Part shown: one piece after another, positions 3,340 to 24,717 of the stretch
Layout: each line of letters starts with the position of its first letter
How positions within the stretch are numbered: position 1 is the first letter of the stretch
NCBI GenBank assembly: GCA_043818055.1
Contig: JBDRGF010000075.1
Coordinates: 1,733 to 65,732, forward strand
Length of the DNA: 64,000 nucleotides
DNA from: Pseudomonadota bacterium
Lineage (GTDB): Bacteria > UBA10199 > 2-02-FULL-44-16 > JBDRGF01
Direction: 5' to 3'
The notes under the pieces: generated by a model
What the model was told of the DNA's origin: nothing
Database searches by the model: none
The model's input: only the letters and a program-made list of their open reading frames with translations
Made by a program: the position numbers and the translations under genes

Positions 3340-3879
3340 TTACTCTGATTCTTCAAATGTTTCTTCTTTGATCTCATGCTTATCGAGGGCATGTAATATA
3401 TCCTTCTGAATAATTTCATATGTGGCATGCCTGATGGTTCCATCTTCCATCGCATGCTTGTAAATCTCATCGCCTCCGTTGCCTGCCATGTTGATGATCT
3501 CCTGCGGTTTTACATCTTCCACGTGTTCAGCGTGCAAATCTCTTCCGTCGCCGTTGGGATTTTTAAAATCTACCTTGAGGCCCTGCAAAATCAACATTCC
3601 TTTCAGGTTATGACTGATCTGTTCTCTGGTCGGTGTTGTTTGCATTCCATGATCGGAGAGGAAAAGGTGATGGATCTCACCCTTTATTTCAACGGAGCTG
3701 TGGTCGCTTATTTCCTTTGATGGCGCTGCGCTGATGATGATTTGATAATTTCCATATTTCGCATGCACATTGAATACATGCGTTGTTCCCGGTTGCATAT
3801 GGCTAAACGCCTCGATTTTTTTCTCGAGCTCATCCATAAATCTTCTTTTTCCGTTGTTATTGTTTGTTTCTTTTCTCAT
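3340..3879 (-). CDS. Hypothetical protein (179 aa), preceded by a sigma-54 promoter
   Basis: Clean ORF with no recognisable domain. A perfect -24/-12 element lies about 40 nt upstream on the minus strand. Confidence 0.5.
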   Translation of the reverse strand: MRKETNNNNGKRRFMDELEKKIEAFSHMQPGTTHVFNVHAKYGNYQIIISAAPSKEISDHSSVEIKGEIHHLFLSDHGMQTTPTREQISHNLKGMLILQGLKVDFKNPNGDGRDLHAEHVEDVKPQEIINMAGNGGDEIYKHAMEDGTIRHATYEIIQKDILHALDKHEIKEETFEESE

Positions 3880-3919
3880 CGTTTCCCCCTTCAGGATGGT
3901 CTTCTATGACTAAAAAAAA

Positions 3920-3934
3920 GCAAGTTTTGTGCCA
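3920..3934 (-). promoter_or_regulatory. Sigma-54 (RpoN) -24/-12 promoter TGGCAC-N5-TTGCT, minus strand, driving the 3340..3879 gene
   Basis: The reverse complement of 3920-3934 reads TGGCACAAAACTTGC(T), an exact match to the consensus TGGCAC-N5-TTGCW. It sits about 40 nt upstream of the start codon at 3879. Confidence 0.6.
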
Positions 3935-4328: not shown

Positions 4329-6983
4329 ATGAAGAATAAAATCAGGGCATTGCTTGTGTTGTTATCCATTTTTGCATCGATGAGCCTGATAGAGATCGCT
4401 CATGCTCAGGTTGAAGCAGTCTCATTTATTTTTGAAAATCCTGAAGTCAGGTGGGTTAGAGAGGAATTATGTTTTAGTTGGAACGGTGATATCGTCAGGG
4501 AGAATGATCCAAATATTGAGACCATTTTTGGTATTGGTTACAAGGTGCTCAACGCATATGGAGAACAGATTTTGGTAGGGGAAGCACGGGAACGCGAACT
4601 TTGTTTTCCTCTGTTTGAGCAAAATCCAAGGACTGCACAGAGCGGTAGGTTTGTTCTGACTGTTGATTTCATCGGTGTGCATAGGGAAAAGGGAGAGAAT
4701 GTGGTTGTGGCGAAGGTCGAAAAGGTATTCAATGTTGACATTTCGCCACCCCCTCCATCTGAGATTGTCGAGCTACGTGCGAATCCGTTTGAACTCATCT
4801 GCACCAAAGTAATTGATGAAAATAGCGGATTTTGGAAGCCGATAATCAATCTATCAACGGTCTCTAAAAGGTCATTTTTTTCACAAGCTCAACTCTCATT
4901 CATCGAGGAACCATTCAAATGGGAGCTTACAGAGGATGGCAGATTTTTGAAGCTCAAATTGACAGGTGAAGATTTTCAAAAACTGCTTAACGAGGCCTCC
5001 ATCACCGAACTTGATTCGAGAATTTACCTAAATGTCGCGGCAATGGATTTTGCAAAGAATCCATCACAAACGGTAGCGATAGAGGTAAAAGAGGATGTGC
5101 TCATGGCGTTAGGGGTGATAACTCCTCCAGCCCCAGCGCCTGTAGCAGTAGTACAAACTACTCCAGCTCCAACACTTTCTCCAGCGCCAGCTCCTAAGCC
5201 TGTTGTTCCGACACAGACAACAACTTATACGCCACCGCCTGCGGTAACGCAGGTAACAAAGCCACCAGTGGTAGTGCAGCCGACTCAGGCCCCAACACCA
5301 CCCCCAGCCCCTGTCCCAACCCAGACGACGACATATACACCGCCGCCAGCTGTTCCTATAGTGACACCGGTTCCAGCGCCTACAAATGTGGTTCAACCAT
5401 CTCCAGCGCCTTCTGTTCCGCTTGTCGTTCAACAGCCAGCGCCGAGTGCACCTGTGGGAGTAGCAACTCAGACACCTGCAACTCAAAATACGGTTGTCGA
5501 AAGTGGAACTGGAGAAGAAACATCGAGTTCCGGCAAAGTAGGAATGTCTGTGCAAGTTCCCACTGCTCCGATTGAAGTGACACCTGTAAACCCAGAGGAT
5601 GGCAAGGTCTCAACTGCTGTTCCTTCTTCAAATTTAAACTTAGTTCAGACGGCTCCAACGGCAACATCCACGGTAGAAGTTAAACCACCAACAATGCAAG
5701 TAGAGCCAAAATCGGCACCTATTCCGGAACCTATTATTGTTGAAGCGCCACTAGCTGCCAACATCTTCACTCCTGATATTCCAGATTCCATGTTGGCAAA
5801 GAACATAATTGATGTACCACCTCCCACAATGGAAGAAATAGCGCCCTCAATTGGAACGATCAATCCTCCAACAGGAGTCATTGCCAAGCCAGCACCTTTG
5901 GAAGAGCCTCCTTCTCAAATGAGTGTTGTTAGTGTACCACCTCCGAAGACACCGGTAACTGTTGTCGAAAAGCCAGCCGAAGAGGCCGGCACATTTTCTA
6001 CGGGTATGGAGACCCCTGTTGTTCCTGCGCCAGCGCCGGAGGTTGGTAAGATGACAGCAGCAACATCTGTAGCCGAACCTGAACCAGTTGTTTCAGAGGT
6101 GGCTACATTTTCTCAGGCAACACTGGAACCAGTTGTTCCAGAGAAGACGCTGGAAGTTAGTGAAGTGACAACCGAAACCTCTGTAGAAGAACCAGCCCCA
6201 GTTGTTTCAGAGGCGGTCACATTTTCTCAGGCAACACCGGAACCAGTTATTCCAGAGAAGACGCTGGAAGTTAGTGAAGTGACAACCGAAACCTCTGTAG
6301 AAGAACCAGCCCCAGTTGTTTCAGAGATGGCCATATTTTCTCAGACAACGCCCGAACCGGTTGTTGCAGAGCCAGCGCCGGAGGTTGGAAAGATTACAAC
6401 GGCAACCTCTGTGGCTGAACCAGCACCAGTTGTTTCTCAAATGATAACAGAACAAACAGCCACATCTAATGTACCAGCTACTATACATGTAGTGACGGCA
6501 GAAACAAAAATTGTGCAGGTTGAACCTGAAGTAAAGATAGAGGAGGGCAAAGAGGATTTAGGATCGTTTGAACAGGGAATAGAGACTCCAAAATTTGAGG
6601 AACAGAAAGTAGAAGAAAAACCGGAGGAGACAAAATCGTTCACGCAGGGCATGCCACTTCCGACTACACCTCTTCCTCCTTCAGAGCCTGAAAAGCTGAC
6701 TCATACGGAAGTACCCCCATCTCAGGAAACCATTGCAAAAGCCGGTGAGTTGACACCGCCCAGTGATATGACAGTTGATGAACAAGCCCCTGAGGGCGGC
6801 ATATCGGAGTTTTTAGGAATGGGCGGAGGAGGAAAGTGTTCGCTCACCCCTAATGGCGAAGCCACGAATTCGATGGAGCTGATATTTTTAGCCTTTGGCA
6901 TGCTGATAATTATTGCAGCCAAATTTAAGCCGGTCGAAGTAATAATTAGAAAGTTGTCTGTACGAAAACTCCGAAGGAAGTAG
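4329..6983 (+). CDS. Secreted Pro/Thr/Val/Glu-rich surface protein (884 aa) with signal peptide, tandem 38-aa repeats and a C-terminal TM anchor with basic tail
   Basis: N-terminal signal peptide MKNKIRALLVLLSIFASMSLIEIAHA. About 220 aa are globular, followed by a long PAPAP/TQTTTYTPPPAV low-complexity stalk. The C-terminus is GGGGKCSLTPNG + hydrophobic helix + RKLSVRKLRRK. Confidence 0.8.
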   Translation: MKNKIRALLVLLSIFASMSLIEIAHAQVEAVSFIFENPEVRWVREELCFSWNGDIVRENDPNIETIFGIGYKVLNAYGEQILVGEARERELCFPLFEQNPRTAQSGRFVLTVDFIGVHREKGENVVVAKVEKVFNVDISPPPPSEIVELRANPFELICTKVIDENSGFWKPIINLSTVSKRSFFSQAQLSFIEEPFKWELTEDGRFLKLKLTGEDFQKLLNEASITELDSRIYLNVAAMDFAKNPSQTVAIEVKEDVLMALGVITPPAPAPVAVVQTTPAPTLSPAPAPKPVVPTQTTTYTPPPAVTQVTKPPVVVQPTQAPTPPPAPVPTQTTTYTPPPAVPIVTPVPAPTNVVQPSPAPSVPLVVQQPAPSAPVGVATQTPATQNTVVESGTGEETSSSGKVGMSVQVPTAPIEVTPVNPEDGKVSTAVPSSNLNLVQTAPTATSTVEVKPPTMQVEPKSAPIPEPIIVEAPLAANIFTPDIPDSMLAKNIIDVPPPTMEEIAPSIGTINPPTGVIAKPAPLEEPPSQMSVVSVPPPKTPVTVVEKPAEEAGTFSTGMETPVVPAPAPEVGKMTAATSVAEPEPVVSEVATFSQATLEPVVPEKTLEVSEVTTETSVEEPAPVVSEAVTFSQATPEPVIPEKTLEVSEVTTETSVEEPAPVVSEMAIFSQTTPEPVVAEPAPEVGKITTATSVAEPAPVVSQMITEQTATSNVPATIHVVTAETKIVQVEPEVKIEEGKEDLGSFEQGIETPKFEEQKVEEKPEETKSFTQGMPLPTTPLPPSEPEKLTHTEVPPSQETIAKAGELTPPSDMTVDEQAPEGGISEFLGMGGGGKCSLTPNGEATNSMELIFLAFGMLIIIAAKFKPVEVIIRKLSVRKLRRK
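6084..6425 (+). repeat. Three tandem copies of a 114-nt (38-aa) coding repeat inside the surface-protein gene
   Basis: ccagttgtttcagag...gaagaaccagcc units begin at 6084, 6198 and 6312 with period 114 nt and more than 90% nucleotide identity. Related flanking half-repeats sit at about 6031 and 6370. Confidence 0.85.
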
Positions 6984-8361: not shown

Positions 8362-9129
8362 TTAGCTTTTAATGTTTTTTCTCAGAACTTCAAAGGCAGA
8401 CAACTTTCCATAACAGACCAAAACGCAGGAGTCAGGAATTTTTGTGCTTGCCGGAGGAAGCGACATAAGCCCTTTAGAATCTTCGAGAGATAAGACCATG
8501 ATCTTGCGTTCTCTCAGGCCCGATTCCATCAACGTCTTTCCCGCCAGTGGGGAAAATTCATCGACGGTCAATTTTACAATACCATAGTTATTTTTTTGAT
8601 TTAAGAGCTGTTCAAGATTTGTATATTGCAGATCGGTTACCTGTGTCAGTTTTCTCTTTGCCCATTTATTCAAACCGTTGTTGAACCTTGCGAACCTTGA
8701 AAGGAAATTTATCAGGGCTACGACTCCTATTACGGTCAATATGGTGAATCCTGAGCTTGAAAATTTTCCCCCACCCAGAGATACGATGAATGTGGCGAGA
8801 ACAGAAACGATACCTGCGTTTCCGAGTATGATGAGATAGGTGATGATCTTTCGTCTCTTGGGATGATGGAGGATCATCTCAGATTCCCTAGTCGTAAAGC
8901 CTGTGCTGGAAAATGCTGAAAGCGCCTGAAACCGAGCGACATCCTGAGGCAGCCCCGTGAGCTCGAGGGCGATTCCCCCGAGTTTTACGATCGTGTATGA
9001 AAGAATTATAAAGAGGCCTAATAGTATTAAACTCATATTTCGCAGTCTAACATGATTTTGTTTTGAAAACAATGTGGATTCCAAAATCCTGGATCGGAAT
9101 CCGGGATTTTGGACAAAATTTTTCATCAT
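8362..9129 (-). CDS. Potassium-channel-like membrane protein with a C-terminal TrkA-C (RCK_C) domain
   Basis: Two TM helices flank a pore-like segment SAFSSTGFTT. The C-terminal part resembles TrkA-C. The likely true start is the internal Met at 9036 (MSLILLGLF...), which leaves the upstream palindromic sites non-coding. Confidence 0.55.
   Translation of the reverse strand: MMKNFVQNPGFRSRILESTLFSKQNHVRLRNMSLILLGLFIILSYTIVKLGGIALELTGLPQDVARFQALSAFSSTGFTTRESEMILHHPKRRKIITYLIILGNAGIVSVLATFIVSLGGGKFSSSGFTILTVIGVVALINFLSRFARFNNGLNKWAKRKLTQVTDLQYTNLEQLLNQKNNYGIVKLTVDEFSPLAGKTLMESGLRERKIMVLSLEDSKGLMSLPPASTKIPDSCVLVCYGKLSAFEVLRKNIKS
9080..9113. promoter_or_regulatory. Pair of 14-bp palindromic sites (consensus TCCAGGATTTTGGA) 20 bp apart, about 80-110 bp upstream of the sigma-54 promoter; putative enhancer-binding-protein UAS
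   Basis: tccaaaatcctgga (9080-9093) and tccgggattttgga (9100-9113) are near reverse complements of each other. The same motif pair recurs at 19561-19594 upstream of the second sigma-54 promoter. Confidence 0.5.
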
Positions 9130-9190
9130 AAATATACTAGAAAAAAATCGACCTGTTTATATTTCAACAACTTAATTCCCAAAACAACTT

Positions 9191-9205
9191 TGGCACAATA
9201 ATTGC
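9191..9205 (+). promoter_or_regulatory. Sigma-54 promoter TGGCAC-AATAA-TTGCT about 60 nt upstream of precursor ORF A
   Basis: Exact match to the -24/-12 consensus TGGCAC-N5-TTGCW. It points into the precursor / radical-SAM operon. Confidence 0.7.
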
Positions 9206-9267
9206 TATAGAGATTTTCGAAGCTCGAGCAAAAACAAATTAACCAATAACAAAGAAAGGAGAGGAAA

Positions 9268-9360
9268 ATGGAAGCATTAAAAAAGGGCATTACCGAAATT
9301 GAAATCGTCACAGAAGGCTCTGAAGAAGAGATGCTTTGGGGAGTTGTTGGTGGTAAGTAA
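9268..9360 (+). CDS. Putative RiPP precursor peptide A (30 aa): MEALKKGITEIEIVTEGSEEEMLWGVVGGK
   Basis: Strong RBS AAAGGAGAGG 7 nt upstream. It is a tandem paralog of ORF B and lies immediately upstream of radical-SAM genes. Acidic leader-like region plus a Gly-rich C-terminus carrying Trp and Lys. Confidence 0.6.
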   Translation: MEALKKGITEIEIVTEGSEEEMLWGVVGGK

Positions 9361-9389
9361 ACCAAAAACAATTTAAAAAGGAGAGAAAA

Positions 9390-9488
9390 ATGGAAACGTT
9401 AAGAAAAGACATCAATGAAATTGAAGTTGTCACAGAAGGTTCCGAAGAGGAGATGCTTTGGGGCGTTGGCGGCAGCAAGAACAATTAA
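9390..9488 (+). CDS. Putative RiPP precursor peptide B (32 aa): METLRKDINEIEVVTEGSEEEMLWGVGGSKNN
   Basis: RBS AAAGGAGAGA. Shares 21 of 30 residues with peptide A, including the invariant EIE(I/V)VTEGSEEEMLWGV stretch. Confidence 0.6.
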   Translation: METLRKDINEIEVVTEGSEEEMLWGVGGSKNN

Positions 9489-9502
9489 TGAATTAATCGT
9501 GT

Positions 9503-10894
9503 ATGGGGGAGTCAAACTTGCGACTCCCCTCATACATCATATCTACTATGAAAAAACTACTATTAAATAAAAATGTTATTATCAGGGATGAAAGATCATT
9601 TTGGTTGATGTTTAATCCTAATAATGGAGCTACTGTTAAATTGAACAATGATATTGGTAGTCATATCAAAAAGACACTAGATAATGATGAAAAAAAATTA
9701 AACATACCAAACATCAGCGAAAGAACGATCGATGTTTTAAACAAGGAAGGATTTCTAATAAAAGATGGATGTAATAAAGAAGTCTCCCTGAACAATCGCG
9801 TTCAAATCGGTGAAAGATGCAATTGGGTGGTTGGCCCTCAGATAGAATTCAGTTCAAAAATCTCTCCCGTAGGGTTGCTTTGGGAGATAACAAACATGTG
9901 TAATCTGAATTGTGTTTATTGTTTGCCCAATGCAAAGGAAAAAAGAAAAAACAACAAAGAGTTATCAGCTAATGAATTGAACACCATAGTCGACAATATC
10001 ATAAGGGCAAAGGTTTGCAGGGTGACGATATCGGGCGGTGAGGCGTTGCTTAGAAAAGATGATATGTTTCAGATAGCCAGAAAATTAAAATCTGCAAACA
10101 TAATGGTGGGAGCTATTTCGAATGGATTGATCATTGACGAAAAGATGGCAGATGAGATTAAAGAATTGGGAATTCTCATGGGCGTTAGTTTGGATGCTCC
10201 GAAGGGAAATATCAATTGTATAACAAGGGGAAAAGGCGTTTTTGAAAAGGCTCTGACTGCTATTAGGTTGTTGAAAAAAAGAAAAATTCCATTTAATGTG
10301 ATATCTACAGTTACCAATATCAACTTCGACTACCTTCCAGAATTATTTCTGTTGCTCAGGTCTATAGGAGTTACCAATATCGGCCTTCAGGATTTAAAAC
10401 CATCAAATCCGGATGTGTACGAAAAATTTAAACTTACAAGAGAACAAGAGCTAAAAATAAATGACATGTACGCATATCTTAAATCAACTTATCCGGAGAT
10501 ATGCTTTAATGATAACGAATTGAGAATCTTTTCAGGATTGGTTGATAAAAATGGATGCGAAGACAAAACGATAATGAGGTGTTTGGCAGGCACAGTTACT
10601 GGATATATCAATAGCGAAGGTGACATGTTTCCATGCACAAGTTTAAAAAGCTTAAAAATGGGGAATGCTGTTGAGGATGAAATTACACAGATGTGGCAGC
10701 ATTCAGAAGCAATGAAAAAGCTAAAGAAAATGAAAAATCAAACTACAGATGTATTAAGTGGTTGTGATCAAAGCTGTCCCATCAAGAAAACTTGCGATGG
10801 GGGCTGCCGAGGAGAAGCCTTTTATTTAAATGGAGATTGGAGTTCCTTGCATCCTAGATGCTTGAAGATATTAAGATATGAAAATAAAATTTAA
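9503..10894 (+). CDS. Radical SAM enzyme with C-terminal SPASM-like Cys cluster (peptide-modifying maturase candidate)
   Basis: CNLNCVYCLP is the CX3CX2C radical-SAM motif. A C-terminal CDQSCPIKKTCDGGCRGE auxiliary-cluster motif is present. The roughly 100-aa N-terminal region ahead of the core could be a precursor-binding (RRE-like) domain. An alternative start exists at 9548. Confidence 0.75.
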   Translation: MGESNLRLPSYIISTMKKLLLNKNVIIRDERSFWLMFNPNNGATVKLNNDIGSHIKKTLDNDEKKLNIPNISERTIDVLNKEGFLIKDGCNKEVSLNNRVQIGERCNWVVGPQIEFSSKISPVGLLWEITNMCNLNCVYCLPNAKEKRKNNKELSANELNTIVDNIIRAKVCRVTISGGEALLRKDDMFQIARKLKSANIMVGAISNGLIIDEKMADEIKELGILMGVSLDAPKGNINCITRGKGVFEKALTAIRLLKKRKIPFNVISTVTNINFDYLPELFLLLRSIGVTNIGLQDLKPSNPDVYEKFKLTREQELKINDMYAYLKSTYPEICFNDNELRIFSGLVDKNGCEDKTIMRCLAGTVTGYINSEGDMFPCTSLKSLKMGNAVEDEITQMWQHSEAMKKLKKMKNQTTDVLSGCDQSCPIKKTCDGGCRGEAFYLNGDWSSLHPRCLKILRYENKI

Positions 10895-11909
10895 CACATT
10901 TGATTTTCTGATCACAAATGCATGCGACAAAAGATGCTCGATATGCTGCACCAATCCGCATGCCATGAATGAAATCCAGCATTTAAAATTCAATGATTTT
11001 TGTGGGGTTGTCGATTGTATCGAAAAATACTTAGAAGAAAAAAACGAAACAGGCAACTGGGGGATTTCGGGGGGAGAACCCTTTATGTATAGTGATCATG
11101 AGGTGGGAAAAAATTATACGCTGGTTGATATTGTGGAATATCTTAGCACAAAGAAATTTATAAATAGTGTTTCCATCAGAACGTCAGGCTTCGATATAAA
11201 TTCAAAACAAAAATTGATTTTTGATGCATTAGAGAAACTCAGAGCACGCAAATTTATCACTTTTACTACTAGCTACAATTTATTTCAAAAAGGAGACATC
11301 AACGAAAGATTGAAGTGGATTTTACCAATATGGCTGGAATCTCAAGATAATCTTGAGATTCAAGTTATATATAATAAATCCAATTATCAAAAGACCTTGG
11401 ATGGCTTAAATCAGTTGCTAAAGACGGCAAATTTACTTGTCGATAAATCACAGACCATAAAAATCTTGCAGGAAAGATTGCACAAGTCAAATTATTATAG
11501 CTGGTCTATCGATGGAAAGAGAGTGGATATCAAAACATACCCGGCGTATTCTCATGGGAAAATTGATGGTGAAGAGTTTTTTGAGTTCAAGACAGCAAAA
11601 TGCGTTTCACTATCAAAAGCGGATTCAAACGCTGTCTTAGTCGTTAATTTTGATGGAACGCTACATCATTGTTGTAATCCGTATTATAGTTTTAAAAGAC
11701 GGTTTTTTTCACCAAAGATAGAAGGTCTTTTAAGTGGAGGAATAGCATTGGAAGATATCGCCAATTTGTTTTCAGATGGTATGGAAAGGGTTCTGCTTGA
11801 GCCAAAAATAAAATATAATCTCCAGAGAGATTATTGCGATATGTGTTCAGTACTACTCTTTGGACCTGTAATTACAGCAGAAGGAAAGTTTTGTGAAAAA
11901 CCAAATTGA
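10878..11909 (+). CDS. Radical SAM domain protein (second maturase candidate)
   Basis: ITNACDKRCSICCT has CX3CX2C spacing. Downstream Cys pairs HHCCNPYY and CDMCS are present. It overlaps the upstream gene by 17 nt. Confidence 0.65.
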   Translation: MKIKFNTFDFLITNACDKRCSICCTNPHAMNEIQHLKFNDFCGVVDCIEKYLEEKNETGNWGISGGEPFMYSDHEVGKNYTLVDIVEYLSTKKFINSVSIRTSGFDINSKQKLIFDALEKLRARKFITFTTSYNLFQKGDINERLKWILPIWLESQDNLEIQVIYNKSNYQKTLDGLNQLLKTANLLVDKSQTIKILQERLHKSNYYSWSIDGKRVDIKTYPAYSHGKIDGEEFFEFKTAKCVSLSKADSNAVLVVNFDGTLHHCCNPYYSFKRRFFSPKIEGLLSGGIALEDIANLFSDGMERVLLEPKIKYNLQRDYCDMCSVLLFGPVITAEGKFCEKPN

Positions 11910-13314
11910 ACAATTGATCAGCTATTTTCCTGGCGATTATGTCGAAGCCGCGGTTCAGCATAAGATGGTAAACTCATTCTCTTTGCTAAATGGAAAAGGA
12001 GATGGAACTGATTTCAGCGGGACAAAAACTTCTGCGAGAGTGACTTTGTACAGGGGTGGACAAAGGCTTCACCTGCCGATCAGAGAAATAAATGGCAGAA
12101 TTTCATTTTCGGATTTAAAAGATAAGATTTTTAATTCTCATTTCGATAATAAATTTGATGTATATTATAATAAAAACGGTTTTCAAAGGCTCCAAAAGAA
12201 ATCTAAGAATATACTCCGAGATAAAGAGGCTTTTTACTTAACAAAATGCAAGTTGCCTTTCAATTCAATCAACAACAACACAAAAAGAGAGATATTTGCA
12301 GATAGATTGATAAAATGTGATAGGTGTAAGCCATCCTTTGTCGATCTGATAATTTTTTATCAGGATTCTATGACAGAAACCTGCTATTATAATTCCAACA
12401 ATTTCTATCATAACAGAGTGGATAGCATGATTGAATTCTCCGGTTTTCTTAAATATGAGAGAAAACTATATCCAATTTTTTCGCACAACGAAATGGCAGG
12501 ATTGGAAGTTTTGGTTGATTATGTTTTTGGGAATGGATTTGAAGAAAAGATCGAGATGATAAAAGTATTTAAGAATGCATGGGCTACAAAAATAAAGTCG
12601 GGAATCTATAATGTGATCTTGGACCCAACGCTTGGTGCGGGCTTAATTCACGAAGCATTTGGTCATACTTGTGAGGCGGACATCTCATTCAGTAAAAATG
12701 TTAAAGGTCGAAGGGAGTTATTTGCCAAATTTAGAAATGAAGACATCACTATTGCCGATGATCCAACAATTGCTGAAAAGGGGTTTGTCTATATTGATGA
12801 CGAAGGGGTTATGGCTAAAAAAAAATATCTTGTTGAAAAGGGAGTTCTTAAATCCTGCATGCATTCAATATTTACAGCTACAAACAATAATTCAGAAGTT
12901 ATGGGAAATGGCAGAACATCTGATGCGAGCCAAATTCCAATTCCAAGGATGACAAACACTTATATCGAGCCAAAAAATATCAGTCTGACAGAAATGTTCA
13001 GTTCCCTTGACAATGGATTGTATCTCAAAGGTAACATTGGAGGTGGTAAAACAAACGGAAGAAAGTTTTCTTTAAATGTTGAACAAGGATACATTGTAAA
13101 AAAGGGGAAAATAACAGGGAGCCCTATCTCAAATCTTGTCATAAAGGGAGATTGTTTTGCTACGATCAATAATATTGTCAAAATAGGAAATGATTTAACA
13201 TTTGTGAAAGGTTTTGGAGGATGTTCAAAAAAAGGACAAAACAATCTTCCAGTGTCGGGTGGGTCTCCTCATCTTATGGTAAAAAATGTTTTTGTAACGC
13301 ATGTTGAAAGTTGA
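11893..13314 (+). CDS. TldD/PmbA-family metallopeptidase (candidate leader peptidase)
   Basis: LIHEAFGHTCEAD is the HExxxH-type TldD/PmbA signature. The Gly-rich C-terminal beta-region fits the family. GTG start overlaps the upstream gene. Confidence 0.7.
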   Translation: MKNQIEQLISYFPGDYVEAAVQHKMVNSFSLLNGKGDGTDFSGTKTSARVTLYRGGQRLHLPIREINGRISFSDLKDKIFNSHFDNKFDVYYNKNGFQRLQKKSKNILRDKEAFYLTKCKLPFNSINNNTKREIFADRLIKCDRCKPSFVDLIIFYQDSMTETCYYNSNNFYHNRVDSMIEFSGFLKYERKLYPIFSHNEMAGLEVLVDYVFGNGFEEKIEMIKVFKNAWATKIKSGIYNVILDPTLGAGLIHEAFGHTCEADISFSKNVKGRRELFAKFRNEDITIADDPTIAEKGFVYIDDEGVMAKKKYLVEKGVLKSCMHSIFTATNNNSEVMGNGRTSDASQIPIPRMTNTYIEPKNISLTEMFSSLDNGLYLKGNIGGGKTNGRKFSLNVEQGYIVKKGKITGSPISNLVIKGDCFATINNIVKIGNDLTFVKGFGGCSKKGQNNLPVSGGSPHLMVKNVFVTHVES

Positions 13315-13319: not shown

Positions 13320-15293
13320 ATGAATATGAAGATACTCTTAGTCAATCCATATTGGTCCATAGTTTCTAAATATACTCCTTATAGTTTATTGCAATTGGGG
13401 TCATATATCAATGCAAAGACAATTCATAAAGCAGAAGTGTTAGATCTCAACATTGAATTACATGATGATATGTACAATCCTCACATTCTTATTGAAAAGG
13501 CTTGTAATTTGGTTTTGCAAAAGGATTTTGACATATTAGGGATTTCGGTCACCACTATAGACCTTCCGTTTACAGTCAGCTTTACCAAAAAATTTAACAA
13601 ATTGTGCAATAAGCCAGTTGTTTTAGGAGGGATTCATGCAACTCTTGCCCCAGATGAGTTATTTTCACTTTGTCCAGTTGATTACATTGTTCGTGGAGAG
13701 GGAGAGATAACTATTTCCAACCTTCTGGATAATTTGGATATAATGAACAATAAAAATCTTAAGGACATTATGGGTCTTTCTTATCGTGATGGGAGTGCGA
13801 TAGTTCACAATAATAACAGAAAAGTAATTTCCGATCTTTCTATCCTGCCTCTAGTGGATTATCAACTCATAAAACCATTGAAACATTATTTTATCAACAA
13901 ACTTAAAAAAAGTTATATCATGTGCAGCAGGGGATGTGGATACAATTGCAAGTTTTGTTCAGGCAGTCGAATATGGATGAAACAGCGCAGATTTCCCATT
14001 GATAGAATATTGAATGAAATCAAATTTCTAAAAGATTCCGGATCCGAGTTCATTTCCATCCAGGATGATTGTTTGACTATGAAGCGCTCCTGGTTTTTGG
14101 AGTTGGCTGAAGGCATTGGAAAAATAGGCATTAATTGGGGATGTTTGAGCAGGCTCGACCGCATTGATGAAGATATGCTTGATACAATGAAATCAAGCAG
14201 GTGCAAAGAGGTCTATTATGGCATAGAGTCGGGTAGCCCAAGGGTAAGAAAATTTTTGGAAAAAGGACTGATGTTTTCAAATGAAATAATTATAAAAAAA
14301 GTCAAAGACACTTTGAAAAGGGGAATTAATCCAATTTGCTCTTTTATGACAGGCATACCGACTGAAACTGAAGAAGAGTTCAATGAAACGGTTAATCTGG
14401 CCGTTGAAATTAAAAGGTGTGGTGCAAAACCTCAACTCAACCTGCTCACTCCACTTACTGGGACTAGACTCAAAGAAGAATACAAAGACAAAATTATTAA
14501 ATATGACAAGTGGGAGAAAATAGGTTTTGCAGACATTTTTGCAAAGGATCAACATTGGCTATTCAACTATCTTCTGGATGAGTTGAAGGATTATCTTCCG
14601 GACTATTATTTGTTCAAAAATCAAATGCCGCTTAATAGATTTGTTTCAAAGTATATGAAAGCCAGAAAAGAGCTTTCCCTCGAGAGCAAAAGCAACAAGA
14701 TGTTTTTTCTAGATAGAACAGAAGATGAGATATTGGTGCTCAATGGTGAAAGGTTGCGTGTCGATAAAAGCAGTTTTATAGAATTAAAACTCGAATGCGG
14801 CATGCTTGATGAGTACAGAGCTCAGCGCAATAAGCTTTCTTCTAATATCATTTTTATTCAATTTAAATATTCATCCTTCAAGTGCAATATTATTCCTGAA
14901 ACAAAGGAATTTTTAACAGAAATCTTAAAAGAAATTAATTCTGGGTATCGTATAATTATATTAAATCCCCTGCCGCGTTGTTCACTGTCGGATGAAGCGA
15001 CGAAACTGTTACGTGAGATAACGCTCCCTCATAATTGTCTTTGGTGTTCAAATCTTTTTTATAAATGTTTGGATAAGATAAAAATGTGCTCAGCCATAGG
15101 GGATGATGTTGAGCTCAAGGTTCCATTTGAACACATAGATAGCAGGAATAGAATATATCGCTATTTTGTAAAAGAAACTTTGGATAAAAATATAATCAGT
15201 GATAAAAAGTGTAGTGAATGTTCAATGCAACGAGATTGCACTATGCTTTGCATAGGTAGAGGTGATCGACAAAACAATGAGAGTTTTGCATGA
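13320..15293 (+). CDS. B12-binding-domain radical SAM protein (class B-like) with a Cys-rich C-terminal extension
   Basis: The N-terminus MKILLVNPYW...VLGGIHATL resembles a B12-binding domain. YIMCSRGCGYNCKFCSG is the radical-SAM cluster. The roughly 190-aa C-terminus has several CxxC motifs. Confidence 0.7.
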   Translation: MNMKILLVNPYWSIVSKYTPYSLLQLGSYINAKTIHKAEVLDLNIELHDDMYNPHILIEKACNLVLQKDFDILGISVTTIDLPFTVSFTKKFNKLCNKPVVLGGIHATLAPDELFSLCPVDYIVRGEGEITISNLLDNLDIMNNKNLKDIMGLSYRDGSAIVHNNNRKVISDLSILPLVDYQLIKPLKHYFINKLKKSYIMCSRGCGYNCKFCSGSRIWMKQRRFPIDRILNEIKFLKDSGSEFISIQDDCLTMKRSWFLELAEGIGKIGINWGCLSRLDRIDEDMLDTMKSSRCKEVYYGIESGSPRVRKFLEKGLMFSNEIIIKKVKDTLKRGINPICSFMTGIPTETEEEFNETVNLAVEIKRCGAKPQLNLLTPLTGTRLKEEYKDKIIKYDKWEKIGFADIFAKDQHWLFNYLLDELKDYLPDYYLFKNQMPLNRFVSKYMKARKELSLESKSNKMFFLDRTEDEILVLNGERLRVDKSSFIELKLECGMLDEYRAQRNKLSSNIIFIQFKYSSFKCNIIPETKEFLTEILKEINSGYRIIILNPLPRCSLSDEATKLLREITLPHNCLWCSNLFYKCLDKIKMCSAIGDDVELKVPFEHIDSRNRIYRYFVKETLDKNIISDKKCSECSMQRDCTMLCIGRGDRQNNESFA

Positions 15294-18200
15294 AAAGGAT
15301 ATATACAGAAAGATTCTACATTCTTTCGGTTGCTGTCATCATCATTCTGGCGGGTATCTATTACTCCCTAAGAATCCCCATAGAGTTATATCCCAACGCC
15401 ACTCAGACGAAAATAACAGTCCAAACTCATTATAAAAGTCTATCTCCTTTCGCCTTTAAAGATCGTTATGGAGATTTGATAGAAAAAGAATTGAATGGAG
15501 AAGGCGAATTTGAAGAGGTAGATTGTAAATATCAATACGAATATGCAATTTGCAGGGGAAAGTTGCCGTTCGGTTCAGATGATCATGTAATTTTGGAAAG
15601 GGTAAAAAACAAGCTTGAACCAATTTTTTTGTCATTTCCCGCTGAATGGAAAGAGGCAGAGGTAAACTTTGGCGATTCCAACAAGGGAGTTCTTATAATA
15701 GCATTATACTCAAAAAATATACCTCTGAAAAAGGTCTATGATGAGATATCGCCATCGATCAATTCGTTCCTTTCGACTCATCCCGATGTCAGTGTCGGTG
15801 AAGTTTCAAATCTTTTTGAAAAAAAGATTTCAATAAGCATAAAACCAAATGTTGAAAATAAAATCACCAAAGAAATGATCTTTAATCAACTTAGTTCTTC
15901 AAACAATGATATTAAAACCATTGGAAACATTTCCATTGAAGGAAATATTCTTTCAATAGAAGCAAGTTCAAAATTGATAGAAAGCCTTGATGATCTCGAA
16001 AATTTCAAGCTTTTGACCAAACAAAATGAGATACTAAAGCTGAAAGATATCGCCGACGTAAAAATCATTCCAGTCGAACCTAATGAATTGTTTAAAGGAA
16101 ATAATCAAAATTCACTCATAGTGTGGGTTGCTCCTCAGGCAAAGGCTAACCTGGTTAATTTTAGCGATTCCATCGAATCCAAAGTCAAAGCAGAGATTAA
16201 ACGTTTCAACGGCGAAGTTACTGCTCAAACGCTTTTGAATCCGGCATCTTTTATCAGGAACGCGGTTAAAGACATTTTGTATTCATTGATTATCAGCGTG
16301 ATACTCTCTGGAATTGTCGTCTTCTTGTTTTTGGGATCCTTGAAATATTCCACAGTTATAAATCTAGTCATGCCCTTGTCGTTATTTGGCACTATTTTAT
16401 TCATGTATATCTTAGGTATAGAAGTGAACCTCATTTCAATGGGGGCAATGGCCATTGCAATAGGCATGGTTGTCGATGCATCTATAGTGGTAATAGAAAA
16501 TATTTTTAGGCACCTGCAAAATACGCATCCGAAGGATTATTCCGAGAAACTTGGAATCTATGTCAAAGCTGTATCAGAAGTTAAAGGTGCACTTTTTTCG
16601 TCAACGATAACGACCATATGTGTTTTCGTGCCACTGCACTATGCCTCTCCTCTTGTCAGCGCCATCTTGGGAGATGTTGCGACGGTGATGACGCTCAGTC
16701 TTTTTCTTTCCATGATAATGGCCATCTTTTTTGTTCCTTCAATCCTTTTGTGGATAAATCCAGATATCACGCAGATGGAAAATTTAAAGCACAAGTCCAA
16801 TTTTCTAAATAGATGTTTTACAAATATTCAAAAATACTACTCAGAGGCAGTTAAATGCTTTATCACAAATAAAGTCATCAATGTCCCGATTATAATAACA
16901 TTGTTAATCCTCTTTTTACTATCTTTATATTTGGCTGTTTACAAGATTGACCACGAACTTATAGCAACACCGACATCAGATATAATTGTTTTTCATAGGG
17001 GTAATTCAAAAGACGTTGACAGCATTGCTACGCAGGAAAAGGATTTTCACGATACTGAGCGGGAGGTGTTTAAGCTAACATCTGACTATGTTGATTTTAC
17101 GCTTACCGTCTTGCGCAAGGATTTAGCGATGATGTTGTTGCACATCAAAAATGAAAAATACAAAGAAACATTGAAACAACTTCTCATAAAAAAATATAAG
17201 AGCTCAGAAAAATATGAATTCAAGGTAGTCGATTGGGTTCCAACGCAATTTGAAATACCAGACCCACCACAGATGAAGGTGTTGATCGGCGGTGCAAGCC
17301 CAGCTGAAAGCAAATTGATTCAGGCTGAGGTGGAAAAATTCATTTTAGCAAACAGCAAAACGGTAAGGTCTTATTCCATTCCGACAAGCCTAACTTCGGA
17401 TGAGATAATCGTTGATATAGACGTTGAAAAACTGGGTTATCAAAACAGAATTCACGGAACATCTTATTCAAAAAAACAAATCCTTGATATCTTGAATTTT
17501 CACGCGAAAGAAAAATATTTAAGGCACATGAAGTTTGATGGAGCAAAAACAGCGGTATTTCTTGAATCGGACTATCCCAAATTAAAGAGAGAAAAGATTT
17601 CAAGCTTTAGCATACCGTTTGGGAACGGATCGCTAACGCTGGATAAAATCGCAGACATAAAATTAGTCAAATCAGATAGTGAGATTCACAGCTACAATGG
17701 TGGTATGCAATATGAAGTAGATGCCTTTTTTTCGGACAAGGGCTTCACATATTTCGATGAATTTTCAACAACATTAATTCATAAATTTGGTAAAGAGAAA
17801 ATATCAACACATTATCCTTATGGACTGATAAACGATACAATAAACAAACTCTTTTGGGCATTGGCTGTTTCCTGTTTGCTCGTATTCCTTGTGGTTTTTT
17901 TACAATACAGGAACATCTATTACACCTTAATAATATTGATGGCAATTCCTACTAGCGTGATTGGAGCTCTCATTTCATTATATATATTCAAATCAACTCT
18001 TGGCATGAACGCGCTTTTGGGTCTCATTTTGCTTTCAGGCATAAGTGTCAACAGCACAATCATCATCATAGATTTTTACGATAAAATAGGCTCTGACGAC
18101 ATCGCTGACGGAATTGTTCAAACGATGAACTTGAGATTAAAGCCAATTTGCATGACTGCCTTTACCACTGTCATAGCAATGGTACCCATCGCTGTAAAAT

Positions 18201-18343
18201 TATTCAGCGGTTCAGAGGCGCTGCAGCCGCTGGGAATAACGATAAGTTGCGGATTATTTGTTTCAACACTATTGATACTCTTTATCGTTCCCTGGCTACT
18301 CTATTGTTTGCCGAAGAAGAGAGTTGGGAAATCACAGTTATGA
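15290..18343 (+). CDS. RND-superfamily (AcrB/HAE-like) efflux transporter permease, 1017 aa
   Basis: The N-terminus SLRIPIELYPNATQTKITVQT matches the AcrB motif. Two 6-TM bundles are separated by large extracytoplasmic domains. Confidence 0.75.
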   Translation: MKRIYTERFYILSVAVIIILAGIYYSLRIPIELYPNATQTKITVQTHYKSLSPFAFKDRYGDLIEKELNGEGEFEEVDCKYQYEYAICRGKLPFGSDDHVILERVKNKLEPIFLSFPAEWKEAEVNFGDSNKGVLIIALYSKNIPLKKVYDEISPSINSFLSTHPDVSVGEVSNLFEKKISISIKPNVENKITKEMIFNQLSSSNNDIKTIGNISIEGNILSIEASSKLIESLDDLENFKLLTKQNEILKLKDIADVKIIPVEPNELFKGNNQNSLIVWVAPQAKANLVNFSDSIESKVKAEIKRFNGEVTAQTLLNPASFIRNAVKDILYSLIISVILSGIVVFLFLGSLKYSTVINLVMPLSLFGTILFMYILGIEVNLISMGAMAIAIGMVVDASIVVIENIFRHLQNTHPKDYSEKLGIYVKAVSEVKGALFSSTITTICVFVPLHYASPLVSAILGDVATVMTLSLFLSMIMAIFFVPSILLWINPDITQMENLKHKSNFLNRCFTNIQKYYSEAVKCFITNKVINVPIIITLLILFLLSLYLAVYKIDHELIATPTSDIIVFHRGNSKDVDSIATQEKDFHDTEREVFKLTSDYVDFTLTVLRKDLAMMLLHIKNEKYKETLKQLLIKKYKSSEKYEFKVVDWVPTQFEIPDPPQMKVLIGGASPAESKLIQAEVEKFILANSKTVRSYSIPTSLTSDEIIVDIDVEKLGYQNRIHGTSYSKKQILDILNFHAKEKYLRHMKFDGAKTAVFLESDYPKLKREKISSFSIPFGNGSLTLDKIADIKLVKSDSEIHSYNGGMQYEVDAFFSDKGFTYFDEFSTTLIHKFGKEKISTHYPYGLINDTINKLFWALAVSCLLVFLVVFLQYRNIYYTLIILMAIPTSVIGALISLYIFKSTLGMNALLGLILLSGISVNSTIIIIDFYDKIGSDDIADGIVQTMNLRLKPICMTAFTTVIAMVPIAVKLFSGSEALQPLGITISCGLFVSTLLILFIVPWLLYCLPKKRVGKSQL

Positions 18344-19578
18344 AAATGTTAGGCGCATTAAAATTGAACAGAAATTTTTGGCTGCTCATAACAGGCCAGT
18401 TCACATCGAATATCGGCAGCACAATTTCAGAGCTGGGAATATCTTGGCTCGTCCTCAAGGAGTACTCGATCACAGAGTTTACCATATTTTCCGGAATATG
18501 CTTGCTGCCAAGGGTTATTCTGACTCCTCTGTTAGCCCCCCTCTTTGAAAGGGTGAATAAGAAGTTGCTGATGATCTTGTCTGATATCGTAAAAGGCATC
18601 TGTTTGTTTACAATGTATCTGCTCTTTCTCACGAAGGGTCTCAGATACGAGTATATCGTTTCCTTGATGTTTGTTCACGGACTTGTCGGCGTTTTGTTCA
18701 GCATTGCGGTAGAACCTCTGTATTACGACATATTATCGTTGGACGAATATCCAAAGGGGACATCGCTCAGAGAATTATTTGGCCGCATGGCGCCTCTCAT
18801 CGGACCTTCAGCGACTGCCATAATAATGGCAATATCCGGAAACATCGGTCTTTTGCTTCTTATAGATTCAATTACTTTTTTTGTCTCAGCCCTTTGTATC
18901 GTTTTTATCCGCTTGCATATGAAAACAGACTTTGAAAAAACGCCCAAGACAACAGGGTTTAGTTCGTATGCTAAAAATCTGTTTCAGGGGTTGGCGTATG
19001 TCAGCAAAAACAAAAATCTGTTGATGCTCTTTACGTCGTTGATAGCGATTGGGTCTATGTTGGGGGTTTTGGCTTCAATAATGCCGATATACATACGGGA
19101 TCATCTCTCTTCGGGAGTTGTTGGGTTGAGTATTTTTCAGTTGATAGGTAATGCAGGCGCTATAATCGTAGCTATCGGATTGACGATTTGGCAGTACAAA
19201 AGCTCACATTCGAGTATATATTCCTTTGGCGTTGGCATCATTGGCATTGTCGTCATGGGGCTGGTCGTCACTTCAAATTTCTATGCAGCGACATTCATAT
19301 ACTTTTTGCTGCAGGTGACGATCACCATCGCAAGCTATGCGGCAAAAATCCTTTTACGGGAAAATATCGAAGATGACTACAAAACCAGGGCATATTCGTT
19401 GATGTCCATGGAGCAGCTGTTGCAACCGATAACCATCTCTCTGTCAGGGCTCGCAATAAAAGCAATCGGGATTGATAGCATCGTGATGATCATAGGTATT
19501 ACTATAATGATAATAGGGCTTGTTTTGTTGGTGATAAATTTTAAAACGAGTCTTGTTTTTTCCAGAATTTTGGACTGA
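18340..19578 (+). CDS. MFS transporter
   Basis: 12 predicted TM helices. Start chosen at ATG 18340 (MKMLGALKL...), overlapping the RND stop as ATGA. The longer track ORF starting at 18148 would overlap the RND gene. Confidence 0.65.
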   Translation: MKMLGALKLNRNFWLLITGQFTSNIGSTISELGISWLVLKEYSITEFTIFSGICLLPRVILTPLLAPLFERVNKKLLMILSDIVKGICLFTMYLLFLTKGLRYEYIVSLMFVHGLVGVLFSIAVEPLYYDILSLDEYPKGTSLRELFGRMAPLIGPSATAIIMAISGNIGLLLLIDSITFFVSALCIVFIRLHMKTDFEKTPKTTGFSSYAKNLFQGLAYVSKNKNLLMLFTSLIAIGSMLGVLASIMPIYIRDHLSSGVVGLSIFQLIGNAGAIIVAIGLTIWQYKSSHSSIYSFGVGIIGIVVMGLVVTSNFYAATFIYFLLQVTITIASYAAKILLRENIEDDYKTRAYSLMSMEQLLQPITISLSGLAIKAIGIDSIVMIIGITIMIIGLVLLVINFKTSLVFSRILD

Positions 19579-19594
19579 AATCCAGGATTCTGGA
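19561..19594. promoter_or_regulatory. Second pair of TCCAGGATTTTGGA-type palindromic sites, 20 bp apart, about 90-120 bp upstream of the second sigma-54 promoter
   Basis: tccagaattttgga (19561-19574) and tccaggattctgga (19581-19594) have the same consensus and the same spacing as the pair at 9080-9113. Confidence 0.5.
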
Positions 19595-19681
19595 CAGAAA
19601 ATTAGGATTTTATCCGGCTAAATTGACTGTGTAGTTGTGTAACCATATAAAATATAACGTTTTGTGTTTTTTCCTCCACTT

Positions 19682-19696
19682 TGGCACATGGATTGC
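19682..19696 (+). promoter_or_regulatory. Sigma-54 promoter TGGCAC-ATGGA-TTGCT upstream of the MFS / precursor C / methyltransferase operon
   Basis: Exact -24/-12 consensus. The flanks (cTTTGGCACa...aTTGCTATA) closely resemble the promoter at 9191. Confidence 0.7.
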
Positions 19697-19831
19697 TATA
19701 TATTTCAAAAAGTTAAGCAACAAGTTGTAATAGAGTGCGATAATGGTGGGGTAATATAAAGTTACGTAATGAAGTTTTTATATTCAAATTGAAATTGAAA
19801 TTTATTTTCTAATGAAACATGACTTACCGTA

Positions 19832-21076
19832 ATGATAATCAATGGTAAGAGGCATATGGTAAATAATAAAAACCTTTTACAGATATCCTACTTTATTAAT
19901 CAATTAGGTACTTATACAAGCTATCTTGCCATCATTGCAATAGCTCGGGAACACAATAATTCTATAAATTCTATTGCTATGGTATTGGGTGCTTCAGCGG
20001 CAGGGACAATGGTTGGGTGGCTTTTGACAATGAAATATCTTAAAAATGTGCACGCAAAACTTCTCCTTTCGTCATCGTTGATATTGTCAGGTTTGATGAT
20101 GGTATCAATTTTATGTCTGGTTAATTGGTGGCTAGTTGTTGCTGCTTTTTTTGTGTTAGGAATGTGTACCAATACCTACATGTCATCATTCTATACTTTA
20201 ATTCCCAGGATGATCAAAAAAACAGATGTGCCTAATATTAATCAGAACATTCAGATATTGTCTCAATTAGCCATAGTTATAGGTGCGATTTTGGGCGGCA
20301 TTTTGTTAGATCGGTTTGGGTTTAGGCTTCCGCTATTTGTTGATATTATTTCTTATTTATTAGTTGGGGTTGTTTATATGTGTCTTTCCCATAATAGATT
20401 TGTAATTTTATCAGCAGAGAAAGCGAATGATAATACGAAAGACCAAGAAGTGGTACGTCCAAAATGTCCATTTCAAAGGACATTGTTATTTTCTCCATTG
20501 GTGTTGGCTTTTCTGGTGGCTTTTGCTGCAGGTGCATATAATGTGATTGAAATTCCATTTTTCACCGATATTTTAGGGTTGCCCTATCGCTACATTGGAT
20601 TTTATTTTTCAATTTCGGTATTGGGAATTCCAGTTTTTCATGCTTTGGTACGTAAAAAGATGTTGCAAATGGAGTCGCTGCGATCCCTGTTTATCGGTAT
20701 TGCATTAGGTGGTTTGGTTTATTTAGTATGGGGTATGCAGAGCAGCTTATGGATAACTGGTCTTTTGTTAATTTTATTCAGCCTCTTTCAATTAGTTATA
20801 TTCACTTCAGTGAATAATTATCTACATGCCCATGTATTGGAAGATAATAAACTTCAAACGGTTTTTTCAACTTTGCAATTTGGGAGACGTGTGGCAGCTC
20901 TGCTGGGTAAATTAGCGATTCCCTTTATTGTAGGTTTTGCAGGAGAAAAATTTTCTTTTTCAGTGCTAGGTGTTATTATGATAATTGGATTGATTGTTGT
21001 TTTGATAACCAAAAGAGTGATAGAAGGAAGTATGAGTATTGTTGGAGATTTACAACAAAATGCCGCCGAATATTAA
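19832..21076 (+). CDS. MFS-type transporter (second)
   Basis: About 12 TM helices with typical MFS loop spacing. An alternative start exists at 19856. Confidence 0.6.
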   Translation: MIINGKRHMVNNKNLLQISYFINQLGTYTSYLAIIAIAREHNNSINSIAMVLGASAAGTMVGWLLTMKYLKNVHAKLLLSSSLILSGLMMVSILCLVNWWLVVAAFFVLGMCTNTYMSSFYTLIPRMIKKTDVPNINQNIQILSQLAIVIGAILGGILLDRFGFRLPLFVDIISYLLVGVVYMCLSHNRFVILSAEKANDNTKDQEVVRPKCPFQRTLLFSPLVLAFLVAFAAGAYNVIEIPFFTDILGLPYRYIGFYFSISVLGIPVFHALVRKKMLQMESLRSLFIGIALGGLVYLVWGMQSSLWITGLLLILFSLFQLVIFTSVNNYLHAHVLEDNKLQTVFSTLQFGRRVAALLGKLAIPFIVGFAGEKFSFSVLGVIMIIGLIVVLITKRVIEGSMSIVGDLQQNAAEY

Positions 21077-21095: not shown

Positions 21096-21176
21096 ATGAA
21101 GCAAATGGATTTGCTTGGATTGGACAACATTGAAATTCAGCAAGAAGGATGTTGCCCTCAGGGAATTGACGGATAA
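21096..21176 (+). CDS. Putative RiPP precursor peptide C (26 aa): MKQMDLLGLDNIEIQQEGCCPQGIDG
   Basis: Strong RBS AAAGGAGGAGG 6 nt upstream. It shares the leader motif NIEIxxEG with peptides A and B. The CC-containing C-terminus sits directly upstream of the methyltransferase and the anSME-like radical SAM. Confidence 0.5.
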   Translation: MKQMDLLGLDNIEIQQEGCCPQGIDG

Positions 21177-24716: not shown

Positions 24717-24717
24717 T

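Follow-up and report, generated by a model that had tools for sequence, protein, structure and literature searches.

Tandem small genes upstream of a radical-SAM/SPASM enzyme probably encode precursors of an exported peptide natural product in a Pseudomonadota bacterium

The locus described here lies in a 64,000-nucleotide (nt) stretch of contig JBDRGF010000075.1 (assembly GCA_043818055.1) from a metagenome-assembled genome of a Pseudomonadota bacterium; this whole stretch is referred to as the window, and positions are given on its forward strand unless stated otherwise. At the center of the locus are two small open reading frames (ORFs), followed by the gene of a radical S-adenosylmethionine (SAM) enzyme with a SPASM domain. 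The first ORF (9268–9360, ATG 9268 to TAA 9360) encodes peptide A of 30 residues, MEALKKGITEIEIVTEGSEEEMLWGVVGGK, and the second (9390–9488, ATG 9390 to TAA 9488) encodes peptide B of 32 residues, METLRKDINEIEVVTEGSEEEMLWGVGGSKNN. Both are putative precursors of peptides that are made by the ribosome and modified after translation (RiPPs). Each is preceded by a ribosome-binding site of the sequence AAAGGAGAG, at 9255–9263 for peptide A and at 9377–9385 for peptide B. A first-pass annotation had described two co-oriented small ORFs with these sequences and ribosome-binding sites, and the letters confirm it. Its further remark that such ORFs escape gene callers did not hold, as both are present as called genes on the JGI contig Ga0180007_10104057, and the 30-residue peptide is found in a representative protein library.

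The two peptide genes together with their 5' flanks form a 103-nt direct repeat of 81% identity at a spacing of 122 nt, in agreement with the roughly 120 nt first reported. Peptides A and B are identical at 23 of 30 residues. At the nucleotide level, 12 of the 19 differences between the two genes fall at third codon positions (binomial p = 0.007). The changes comprise 12 synonymous and seven non-synonymous ones, yielding a ratio of non-synonymous to synonymous substitution rates (dN/dS) of ~0.07; the comparison of paralogues that had been suggested as a check thus points to purifying selection. Codons 10–26 hold five synonymous changes and a single non-synonymous one, a conservative Ile/Val exchange, and the conserved block extends up to Val26, followed by differences between the paralogues at positions 27 and 29. 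Given the third-position excess and the low dN/dS, A and B are confirmed at the sequence level as genuine coding sequences under purifying selection, arranged in a tandem duplication. Both are short, co-oriented ORFs that adjoin a maturase gene and are selected as coding sequences, as expected for RiPP precursors. Their C-terminal segments read WGVVGGK in peptide A and WGVGGSK in peptide B, and the peptides end in GGK and SKNN, respectively. Trp24 and Lys30 are conserved in both with identical spacing; exactly five residues lie between them in each peptide, rather than the four to five originally counted.

The gene downstream of the twin ORFs (9548–10894) encodes a 448-residue radical-SAM/SPASM maturase, whose N-terminal domain (residues 1–72) resembles a RiPP recognition element (RRE). 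Its start is most likely ATG 9548 and not 9503, because public gene calls give a protein of 448 residues, the N-terminus predicted from 9548 aligns with the N-termini of eleven homologues, and position 9503 falls within the 5' arm of a hairpin. With this start, the gap on the 3' side of peptide B spans 59 nt and carries the hairpin, instead of the 15 nt given in the first-pass annotation. The hairpin, a 15-base-pair (bp) stem-loop without a T-run at 9499–9537 that separates the peptide genes from those of the enzymes, has a folding energy of −24.8 kcal/mol (z = −5.7), and none of 200 shuffled sequences folds as well. It is likely a partial terminator or a transcript stabiliser. Strong stem-loops of this kind, lacking a T-run and placed right after the structural genes, are common in peptide natural-product operons, in which the precursor transcript exceeds that of the enzymes.

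Pfam assigned the domains Radical_SAM, Fer4_12 and SPASM to the maturase. In an alignment of 12 sequences, the CxxxCxxC triad (Cys118, Cys122 and Cys125) and seven C-terminal SPASM cysteines are invariant. In the AlphaFold model (mean predicted local distance difference test score, pLDDT, 79; predicted template modelling score, pTM, 0.84), four short strands and two helices make up the N-terminal domain, whose fold order is β-β-β-α-α; a disordered linker, the barrel and the SPASM domain come after it. Searching the full-length model against the PDB via Foldseek gave as best matches the streptide synthase SuiB (template modelling score 0.65–0.70), the sactisynthase CteB and the cyclopropylglycine synthase TigE. 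Each of the three is a maturase of RiPPs to which a recognition domain is fused, and the alignments with SuiB and CteB take in their RRE. Judged by its predicted fold, the N-terminal domain of the maturase is therefore a putative RRE. The similarity to SuiB is one of architecture only, since the two proteins share 14%–15% identity and the sequence score of 58.8 bits falls below those of anSME (87.6 bits) and SkfB (85.5 bits).

In a large protein database, the maturase has an identical entry and only eleven relatives, which share 33%–37% identity over 75%–98% of the length; a scan of species-representative genomes added a single relative of 27% identity, in a metagenome-assembled genome of Candidatus Taylorbacteria. 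The contigs of the relatives and further metagenome loci (L-numbers; 424 kb) were fetched, and their small ORFs were scanned in six frames. Small ORFs bearing a shared motif lie directly upstream of the enzyme gene, and in the same orientation, in L004, L005, L007/L014, L012/L013 and L045. They read ...IVGWGAGGC(M/G/A)SG.YG... in L007, L014 and L045, where two or three tandem copies are found, ...FKVVTRPGGLVADWG(I/V)GGV... in L004 and L005, and ...FEVVSTGHNQLLWGVGGSSGGTT in L012 and L013. Looser variants occur in L003 (...ALFGCVGA), L016 (CFNGVGGSG, two copies within a single ORF) and L043 (...RWGGLFGAGLA). When aligned, the small ORFs show an invariant Trp-Gly, with an aliphatic residue and Gly-Gly behind it and, some ten residues ahead of it, a hydrophobic stretch of the form x-(E/K/D)-(V/I)-(V/I); the peptides of the window match this frame (EIE(I/V)VTEGSEEEMLWGV...). 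The conserved unit of the family is W-G-(V/A/I)-G-G, set at a constant spacing from a leader motif resembling a β-strand. A Lys after the Trp is absent in several relatives, such as L012 (WGVGGSSGGTT), L007 and L045 (WGAGGC...), and WGAGGCMSGNYGFSNEA. In the short ORFs of the 424 kb, the motif is essentially confined to the neighbourhood of close homologues and occurs beside none of the relatives of 24%–29% identity. The proposal that the peptides are substrates of the adjoining SPASM enzyme is thus supported on two sides, by the SuiB-like fold order and by the motif-bearing small ORFs ahead of homologous enzymes.

Two further observations were made at these loci. Just upstream of the peptide genes in L003 (9136–9744) and L045 (319–909) lies a conserved protein of ~200 residues that has a signal peptide and repeated NGT/VxG units resembling β-strands and that matches no Pfam model. 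In L007 (6595–7307) and L014 (3627–4258), there are three tandem precursor genes, the third of which lacks the Trp (…IVGAGIAGCESGGFGFFVEA); these two clusters also hold an extra radical-SAM enzyme of 445 residues and a CPBP (Rce1-like) protease, which suggests a variant of the system with two substrates or two enzymes.

The maturase gene is followed by that of a small second radical-SAM enzyme of 343 residues (10878–11909), with the motifs CDKRCSICC and GGEPF, which appears as a conserved partner of the maturase. The partner is kept directly downstream in L004, L005, L007, L013 and L045 at 21%–28% identity (tblastn), with CDKxCxxCC and GGEPF invariant, and a word-indexed search with it returned only the self-match. 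The partner goes together with the strict W-G-x-G-G motif and is lacking from the looser-motif loci L003 and L043. Pairing of a SPASM radical-SAM enzyme with a smaller non-SPASM one is also seen in the His-Xaa-Ser system (HxsB/HxsC). However, the present locus has no His-Xaa-Ser repeat peptide, and the score against HxsC is far under the cut-off; all five members of the small-partner group match HxsC weakly, at ~31 bits versus a cut-off of 268.

Downstream of the two radical-SAM genes follows a stand-alone TldD-type metalloprotease with an HEAFGH (HExxxH) motif (11893–13314), a candidate for removal of the leader. The next gene (13320–15293) encodes a B12-binding radical-SAM enzyme of 657 residues with a Cys-rich C-terminal extension, whose best match is ApyD (157 bits, cut-off 750) and which is by its sequence a putative tailoring enzyme for a methylation or a cross-link. 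The operon continues with an RND-type efflux permease (15290–18343) and an MFS transporter (18340–19578). The second operon begins with another MFS transporter (19832–21076), followed by a third small ORF of 26 residues, MKQMDLLGLDNIEIQQEGCCPQGIDG (21096–21176), which is preceded by the ribosome-binding site AGGAGGAGG, contains a leader-like NIEIQQEG stretch, and is followed on its 3' side by a 13-bp stem-loop (21210–21247). Then come a SAM-dependent methyltransferase with an N-terminal winged-helix domain (21271–22281) and a second radical-SAM/SPASM enzyme (22290–23522), the best match of which is the ranthipeptide enzyme PapB (178.6 bits, cut-off 340). The third small ORF is likely the substrate of this second SPASM enzyme, and its Cys-Cys...Asp C-terminus suggests a putative thioether, ranthipeptide-like substrate. 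Its NIEIQQEG stretch also resembles NEIEVVTEG of peptides A and B. The series is completed by a periplasmic binding protein (Peripla_BP_6; 23532–24716), a membrane hybrid histidine kinase (24718–26499) and an NtrC-type sigma-54-dependent response regulator with receiver, Sigma54_activat and HTH_8 domains (26523–27929).

Peptides A and B open an island of ~9–26 kb with a GC content of 0.34–0.39, compared with ~0.45 in the flanks. This suggests that the low-GC cluster was horizontally acquired; the gene of the sigma-54 regulator itself has a GC content like that of the flanks. Beyond the regulator, the region 27989–30259 holds three tandem paralogues of 257, 240 and 256 residues with the motifs FDHLF/LGRPA.GKSE...VPFVTMNN.PES.DP, which resemble P-loop kinases and give a faint match to Zeta_toxin. 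On the other side of the island, positions 4329–6983 encode an 884-residue secreted protein rich in Pro, Thr, Val and Glu, with long internal repeats (…EVSEVTTETSVEEPAPVVSE…) and a C-terminus consisting of a Gly-rich stretch and then a hydrophobic anchor.

Both operons of the island are headed by a sigma-54 promoter. Exact matches to the consensus TGGCAC-N5-TTGCW were sought across the 64-kb window, and two of the three found are these promoters: TGGCACAATAATTGCT at 9191–9206, an exact −24/−12 consensus ~60 nt upstream of peptide A, and TGGCACATGGATTGCT at 19682–19697, ahead of the second operon. An inverted-repeat element of 35 nt, TCCAAAATCCTGGAT-N4-ATCCGGGATTTTGGA, lies at 9080–9114, 76 nt upstream of the −24 element, and is a candidate enhancer site for a sigma-54 activator. 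A near-identical second copy at 19561–19595 is placed 86 nt upstream of the second promoter, and the window holds no others; the two distances, 76 and 86 nt, are one helical turn apart. The palindrome at 9080–9113 had been flagged as terminator-like, but we read it as an activator site because of the near-identical element at a similar distance before the second promoter. The shared element ahead of both promoters implies that the two operons are co-regulated, and the NtrC-type regulator, acting with the binding protein and kinase (23532–26499), is a plausible agent of this control; the element is predicted to be the site bound by the adjacent NtrC-type activator. Another terminator-like match, at 9318–9341 inside peptide A, is weak and falls within coding sequence. 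Searching positions 8900–9700 against Rfam gave sub-threshold chance matches alone (snoZ194, 26.8 bits, gathering score 50), and the region matches no known RNA. The third exact sigma-54 match (3919–3934, reverse strand) lies upstream of a 179-residue ORF (3340–3879, reverse strand); the ORF has no Pfam match, and the site is not accompanied by the 35-nt element.

We estimate a probability of about 0.7 that A and B are RiPP precursors and that the adjacent radical-SAM enzymes mature them. The product would most likely be small and exported, in a natural-product family not characterised so far. The modification is likely to be centred on the Trp, to judge from the precursor alignment, in which W-G-(aliphatic)-G-G is supported as the putative modified region, since it is conserved across otherwise unrelated precursors and the conserved block of A and B reaches to Val26.

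A putative model can be proposed for the maturation. The N-terminal domain of the 9548 enzyme would bind the conserved acidic leader (residues ~8–23, EIE(I/V)VTEGSEEEM), which would dock onto it as a strand. This enzyme, together with or followed by the 10878 enzyme, would then abstract a hydrogen near Trp24, resulting in a cross-link within Trp24-Gly25-Val26. The B12 radical-SAM enzyme may add a methyl group or a further link. Afterwards, the TldD-type protease would trim the unmodified leader and leave the protected C-terminal seven to nine residues, by analogy with PbsP. Finally, the RND and MFS transporters would export the product, and the binding protein, kinase and NtrC-type regulator would drive expression via the 35-nt element and the sigma-54 promoters. 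The analogy for the trimming step is taken from the biphenomycin-like pbs pathway, in which a small macrocyclic core is set free by PbsP, a stand-alone TldD-type HExxxH protease, and a RiPP is the substrate of a B12 radical-SAM enzyme (PMC12257519). The two systems share the stand-alone TldD-type protease and the B12 radical-SAM enzyme. In contrast to the pbs cluster, the present one has no MNIO enzyme, arginase or cupin, and the precursor motif of the pbs pathway is FHAFRF.

Several results weigh against the assignment of A and B as RiPP precursors. At the gene level, no Shine-Dalgarno sequence was found ahead of ATG 9548. Pfam detected no PqqD/RRE match in four N-terminal domains of the family, including that of the maturase. 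Moreover, the maturase scores below every curated NCBIfam cut-off. Its best match is MftC (TIGR03962; 135.5 bits, cut-off 265), followed by WgkB (NF050035; 117.9 bits, cut-off 650), GrrM/OscB (TIGR04261; 71.5 bits, cut-off 310) and AmcB (NF041718; 69.6 bits, cut-off 425); PqqE is also among the top curated matches, and YhhB (NF041707) is not among the best 25. On the side of the peptides, a profile of A and B found only itself among 1.84 billion representative proteins, so that membership of the peptides in the family rests on a short motif and on position; a homology search with a concatenated A/B query likewise returned zero candidates. The sole candidate peptide in L015 is of the GGGIGS type and has no Trp. 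One subgroup of the enzymes (P0008–P0011; L044, 1–12080, and L011, 29–8126) keeps the N-terminal domain and is located at the end of hybrid polyketide synthase/non-ribosomal peptide synthetase clusters, and no precursor peptide was detected at L011 and L044. Hence the enzyme clade does not always go with ribosomal peptides, which hints that it may act on non-ribosomal or carrier-bound substrates. Lastly, the specific reaction on the peptides is one that we infer throughout.

As to this reaction, an aromatic-to-Cβ cyclophane of three residues on Trp-Gly-Val has a chance somewhat short of even, a link to Lys30 is rather improbable, and the rest of the weight goes to other chemistry, such as an epimerisation or a reaction at a Gly Cα. 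The first of these has its counterpart in the triceptides, made by XyeB, OscB/GrrM, YhhB, HaaB and HtkB on an Ω1-X2-X3 motif; HaaB links His to the Cβ of Ala and thus sets a precedent for an aliphatic X3 (PMC11499958). The present system resembles them in having a SPASM radical-SAM enzyme and a conserved aromatic-X-X motif, which is W-G-V in the window and W-G-A, W-G-I or W-G-V in the relatives. It differs in that the maturase scores far under the cut-offs of the cyclophane synthases and lies outside those curated families, in that the motif extends to Gly-Gly and is present once in each peptide without repeats, and in the second small radical-SAM enzyme, which looks obligate here. A cyclophane-type link on W-G-V fits the conservation better than a Lys-Trp link, and by analogy the 9548 enzyme may work like the cyclophane synthases.

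The first alternative to be weighed is the streptide-like one, in which the SPASM enzyme would form a C–C bond between Lys30 and Trp24 and close a macrocycle of seven residues. We regard it as unlikely. The two residues and their spacing are kept in both paralogues while positions 27 and 29 vary, and the top structural match is SuiB, an enzyme that cross-links Lys and Trp; as stated above, however, this resemblance is architectural. In streptide, the Lys precedes the Trp in a K-x3-W motif, and a bond joins the Cβ of Lys to C7 of Trp (PMC9389541). Here the arrangement is the reverse, W24-x5-K30, and the Lys is missing in L007, L012 and L045, the constraint on the relatives' precursors being W-G-(V/A/I)-G-G. 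Because several relatives lack Lys30, a Lys-Trp link cannot define the reaction of the family. At the level of the cluster, the streptide system of Streptococcus (StrA/StrB; SuiA/SuiB) shares a short precursor directly upstream of a radical-SAM/SPASM enzyme with an RRE, here a putative one, a best full-length structural match in SuiB, a Trp in the target region, and a product that is likely exported and connected to a dedicated sensory circuit; streptide expression is under quorum-sensing control (PMC9389541). On the other hand, streptide clusters have one radical-SAM enzyme and a peptidase/ABC exporter, whereas four radical-SAM enzymes are encoded here, along with a TldD-type protease and RND and MFS transporters, in a Pseudomonadota genome and under sigma-54 control. 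Tryglysin (WgkA/WgkB) is a further point of comparison. Its precursor motif also starts with Trp-Gly and has a Lys downstream, and WgkB is among the better curated matches of the maturase, but the tetrahydrobenzindole of tryglysin needs a contiguous W-G-K (PMC9389541), and four more residues intervene before the Lys in A and B. Thus, the Lys-Trp pairing put forward in the first-pass annotation does not stand in that form: its Lys is not conserved in the relatives, and W-x5-K fits neither streptide nor tryglysin.

Less likely still is that the peptides serve as scaffolds for a cofactor or another small molecule, as in the mycofactocin and pyrroloquinoline quinone (PQQ) pathways; residues around the Trp would be cross-linked, excised by the TldD-type protease and turned into a non-peptidic compound. 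The mycofactocin precursor MftA is ~30 residues long, has an acidic leader and is rich in Gly and Val at its C-terminus, and peptides A and B have the same build. Like MftA/MftC and PqqA/PqqE, the present system combines a very short acidic precursor with a target at the extreme C-terminus and an expected trimming by a protease. The TldD-type protease and the several further radical-SAM enzymes of the cluster fit such a pathway, as does the presence of MftC and PqqE among the top matches of the maturase. Yet the score against MftC is half of the family cut-off, no MftA model matches the peptides, and NCBIfam and Pfam searches of the cluster revealed no MftB/D/E/F-type genes. Moreover, the peptides end in GGK and SKNN instead of the C-terminal Gly-Val-Tyr of MftA, with neither a Val-Tyr nor a Glu...Tyr pair. 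Duplicated precursors with divergent C-termini would be unusual for a cofactor, and the RND and MFS exporters and the periplasmic sensor point to an extracellular product.

It is very unlikely that the Gly-Gly pair is a leader cleavage site of the double-glycine type, the mature part being formed by the residues that follow, as the first-pass annotation had offered as an alternative. The pair does lie close to the C-terminus, and in L007 and L045 the sequence after it (CMSGNYGFSNEA and similar) is long enough for a core and is accompanied by a second radical-SAM enzyme. In the window, however, the cores would consist of K in peptide A and SKNN in peptide B, a length of one residue and of four to five, and the cluster holds RND and MFS transporters and a TldD-type protease, with no C39 peptidase/ABC exporter found. 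In addition, the most conserved block ends in W-G-V, so the motif itself is the conserved part. The least probable explanation, that A and B are attenuation-type leader peptides whose translation controls read-through of the 9499–9537 hairpin, or simply non-functional duplicated DNA, would fit the strong hairpin directly behind them and the lack of peptide homologues in the profile search, but is opposed by the purifying selection at the amino-acid level across the whole conserved block, by the strong ribosome-binding sites, by the recurrence of the peptide motif ahead of homologous enzymes in unrelated genomes, and by the hairpin, which, unlike classical attenuators, has no T-run and is placed beyond the stop codon of peptide B, which it does not overlap.

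Peptides modified by radical-SAM enzymes with a fused recognition domain are a well-known kind. Nevertheless, the resources searched appear to contain no description of the combination seen here, in which a W-G-x-G-G motif and a SPASM/small-partner pair occur with a TldD-type protease, a B12 enzyme and sigma-54 control, given that NCBIfam and Pfam models matched none of 12 related peptides, the profile of A and B matched only itself, and a full-text literature search for W-G-x-G-G-type motif strings found nothing relevant. A bolder proposal, doubtful at present, holds two things at once. First, W-G-(V/A/I)-G-G peptides, an RRE-fused SPASM enzyme and an obligate small partner would make up an undescribed RiPP class with unseen chemistry, such as a two-enzyme ring from Trp to an aliphatic residue or to Gly, or a small molecule derived from Trp. 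Second, the product here would act as an autoinducer: the adjacent periplasmic binding protein, the kinase and the sigma-54 activator would sense it and feed back positively on both operons through the 35-nt element.

In summary, the system is a good and tractable lead for genome mining, though its kind is in itself unsurprising. If confirmed, it would offer a compact entry, through a fixed short target motif and a two-enzyme core, to an uncharacterised branch of radical-SAM peptide chemistry, of which about a dozen relatives are known, from uncultivated bacteria. Darobactin, tryglysin and streptide are examples of the potent antibiotics and signals among the cross-linked peptides that radical-SAM enzymes build around Trp. 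Should the product carry a three-residue cyclophane, a distant enzyme clade and motifs of Gly and aliphatic residues would join that class; and the unusually clear sigma-54/two-component wiring, if it works as proposed, would rank among the few documented examples of autoregulation by a RiPP other than in Gram-positive quorum sensing.

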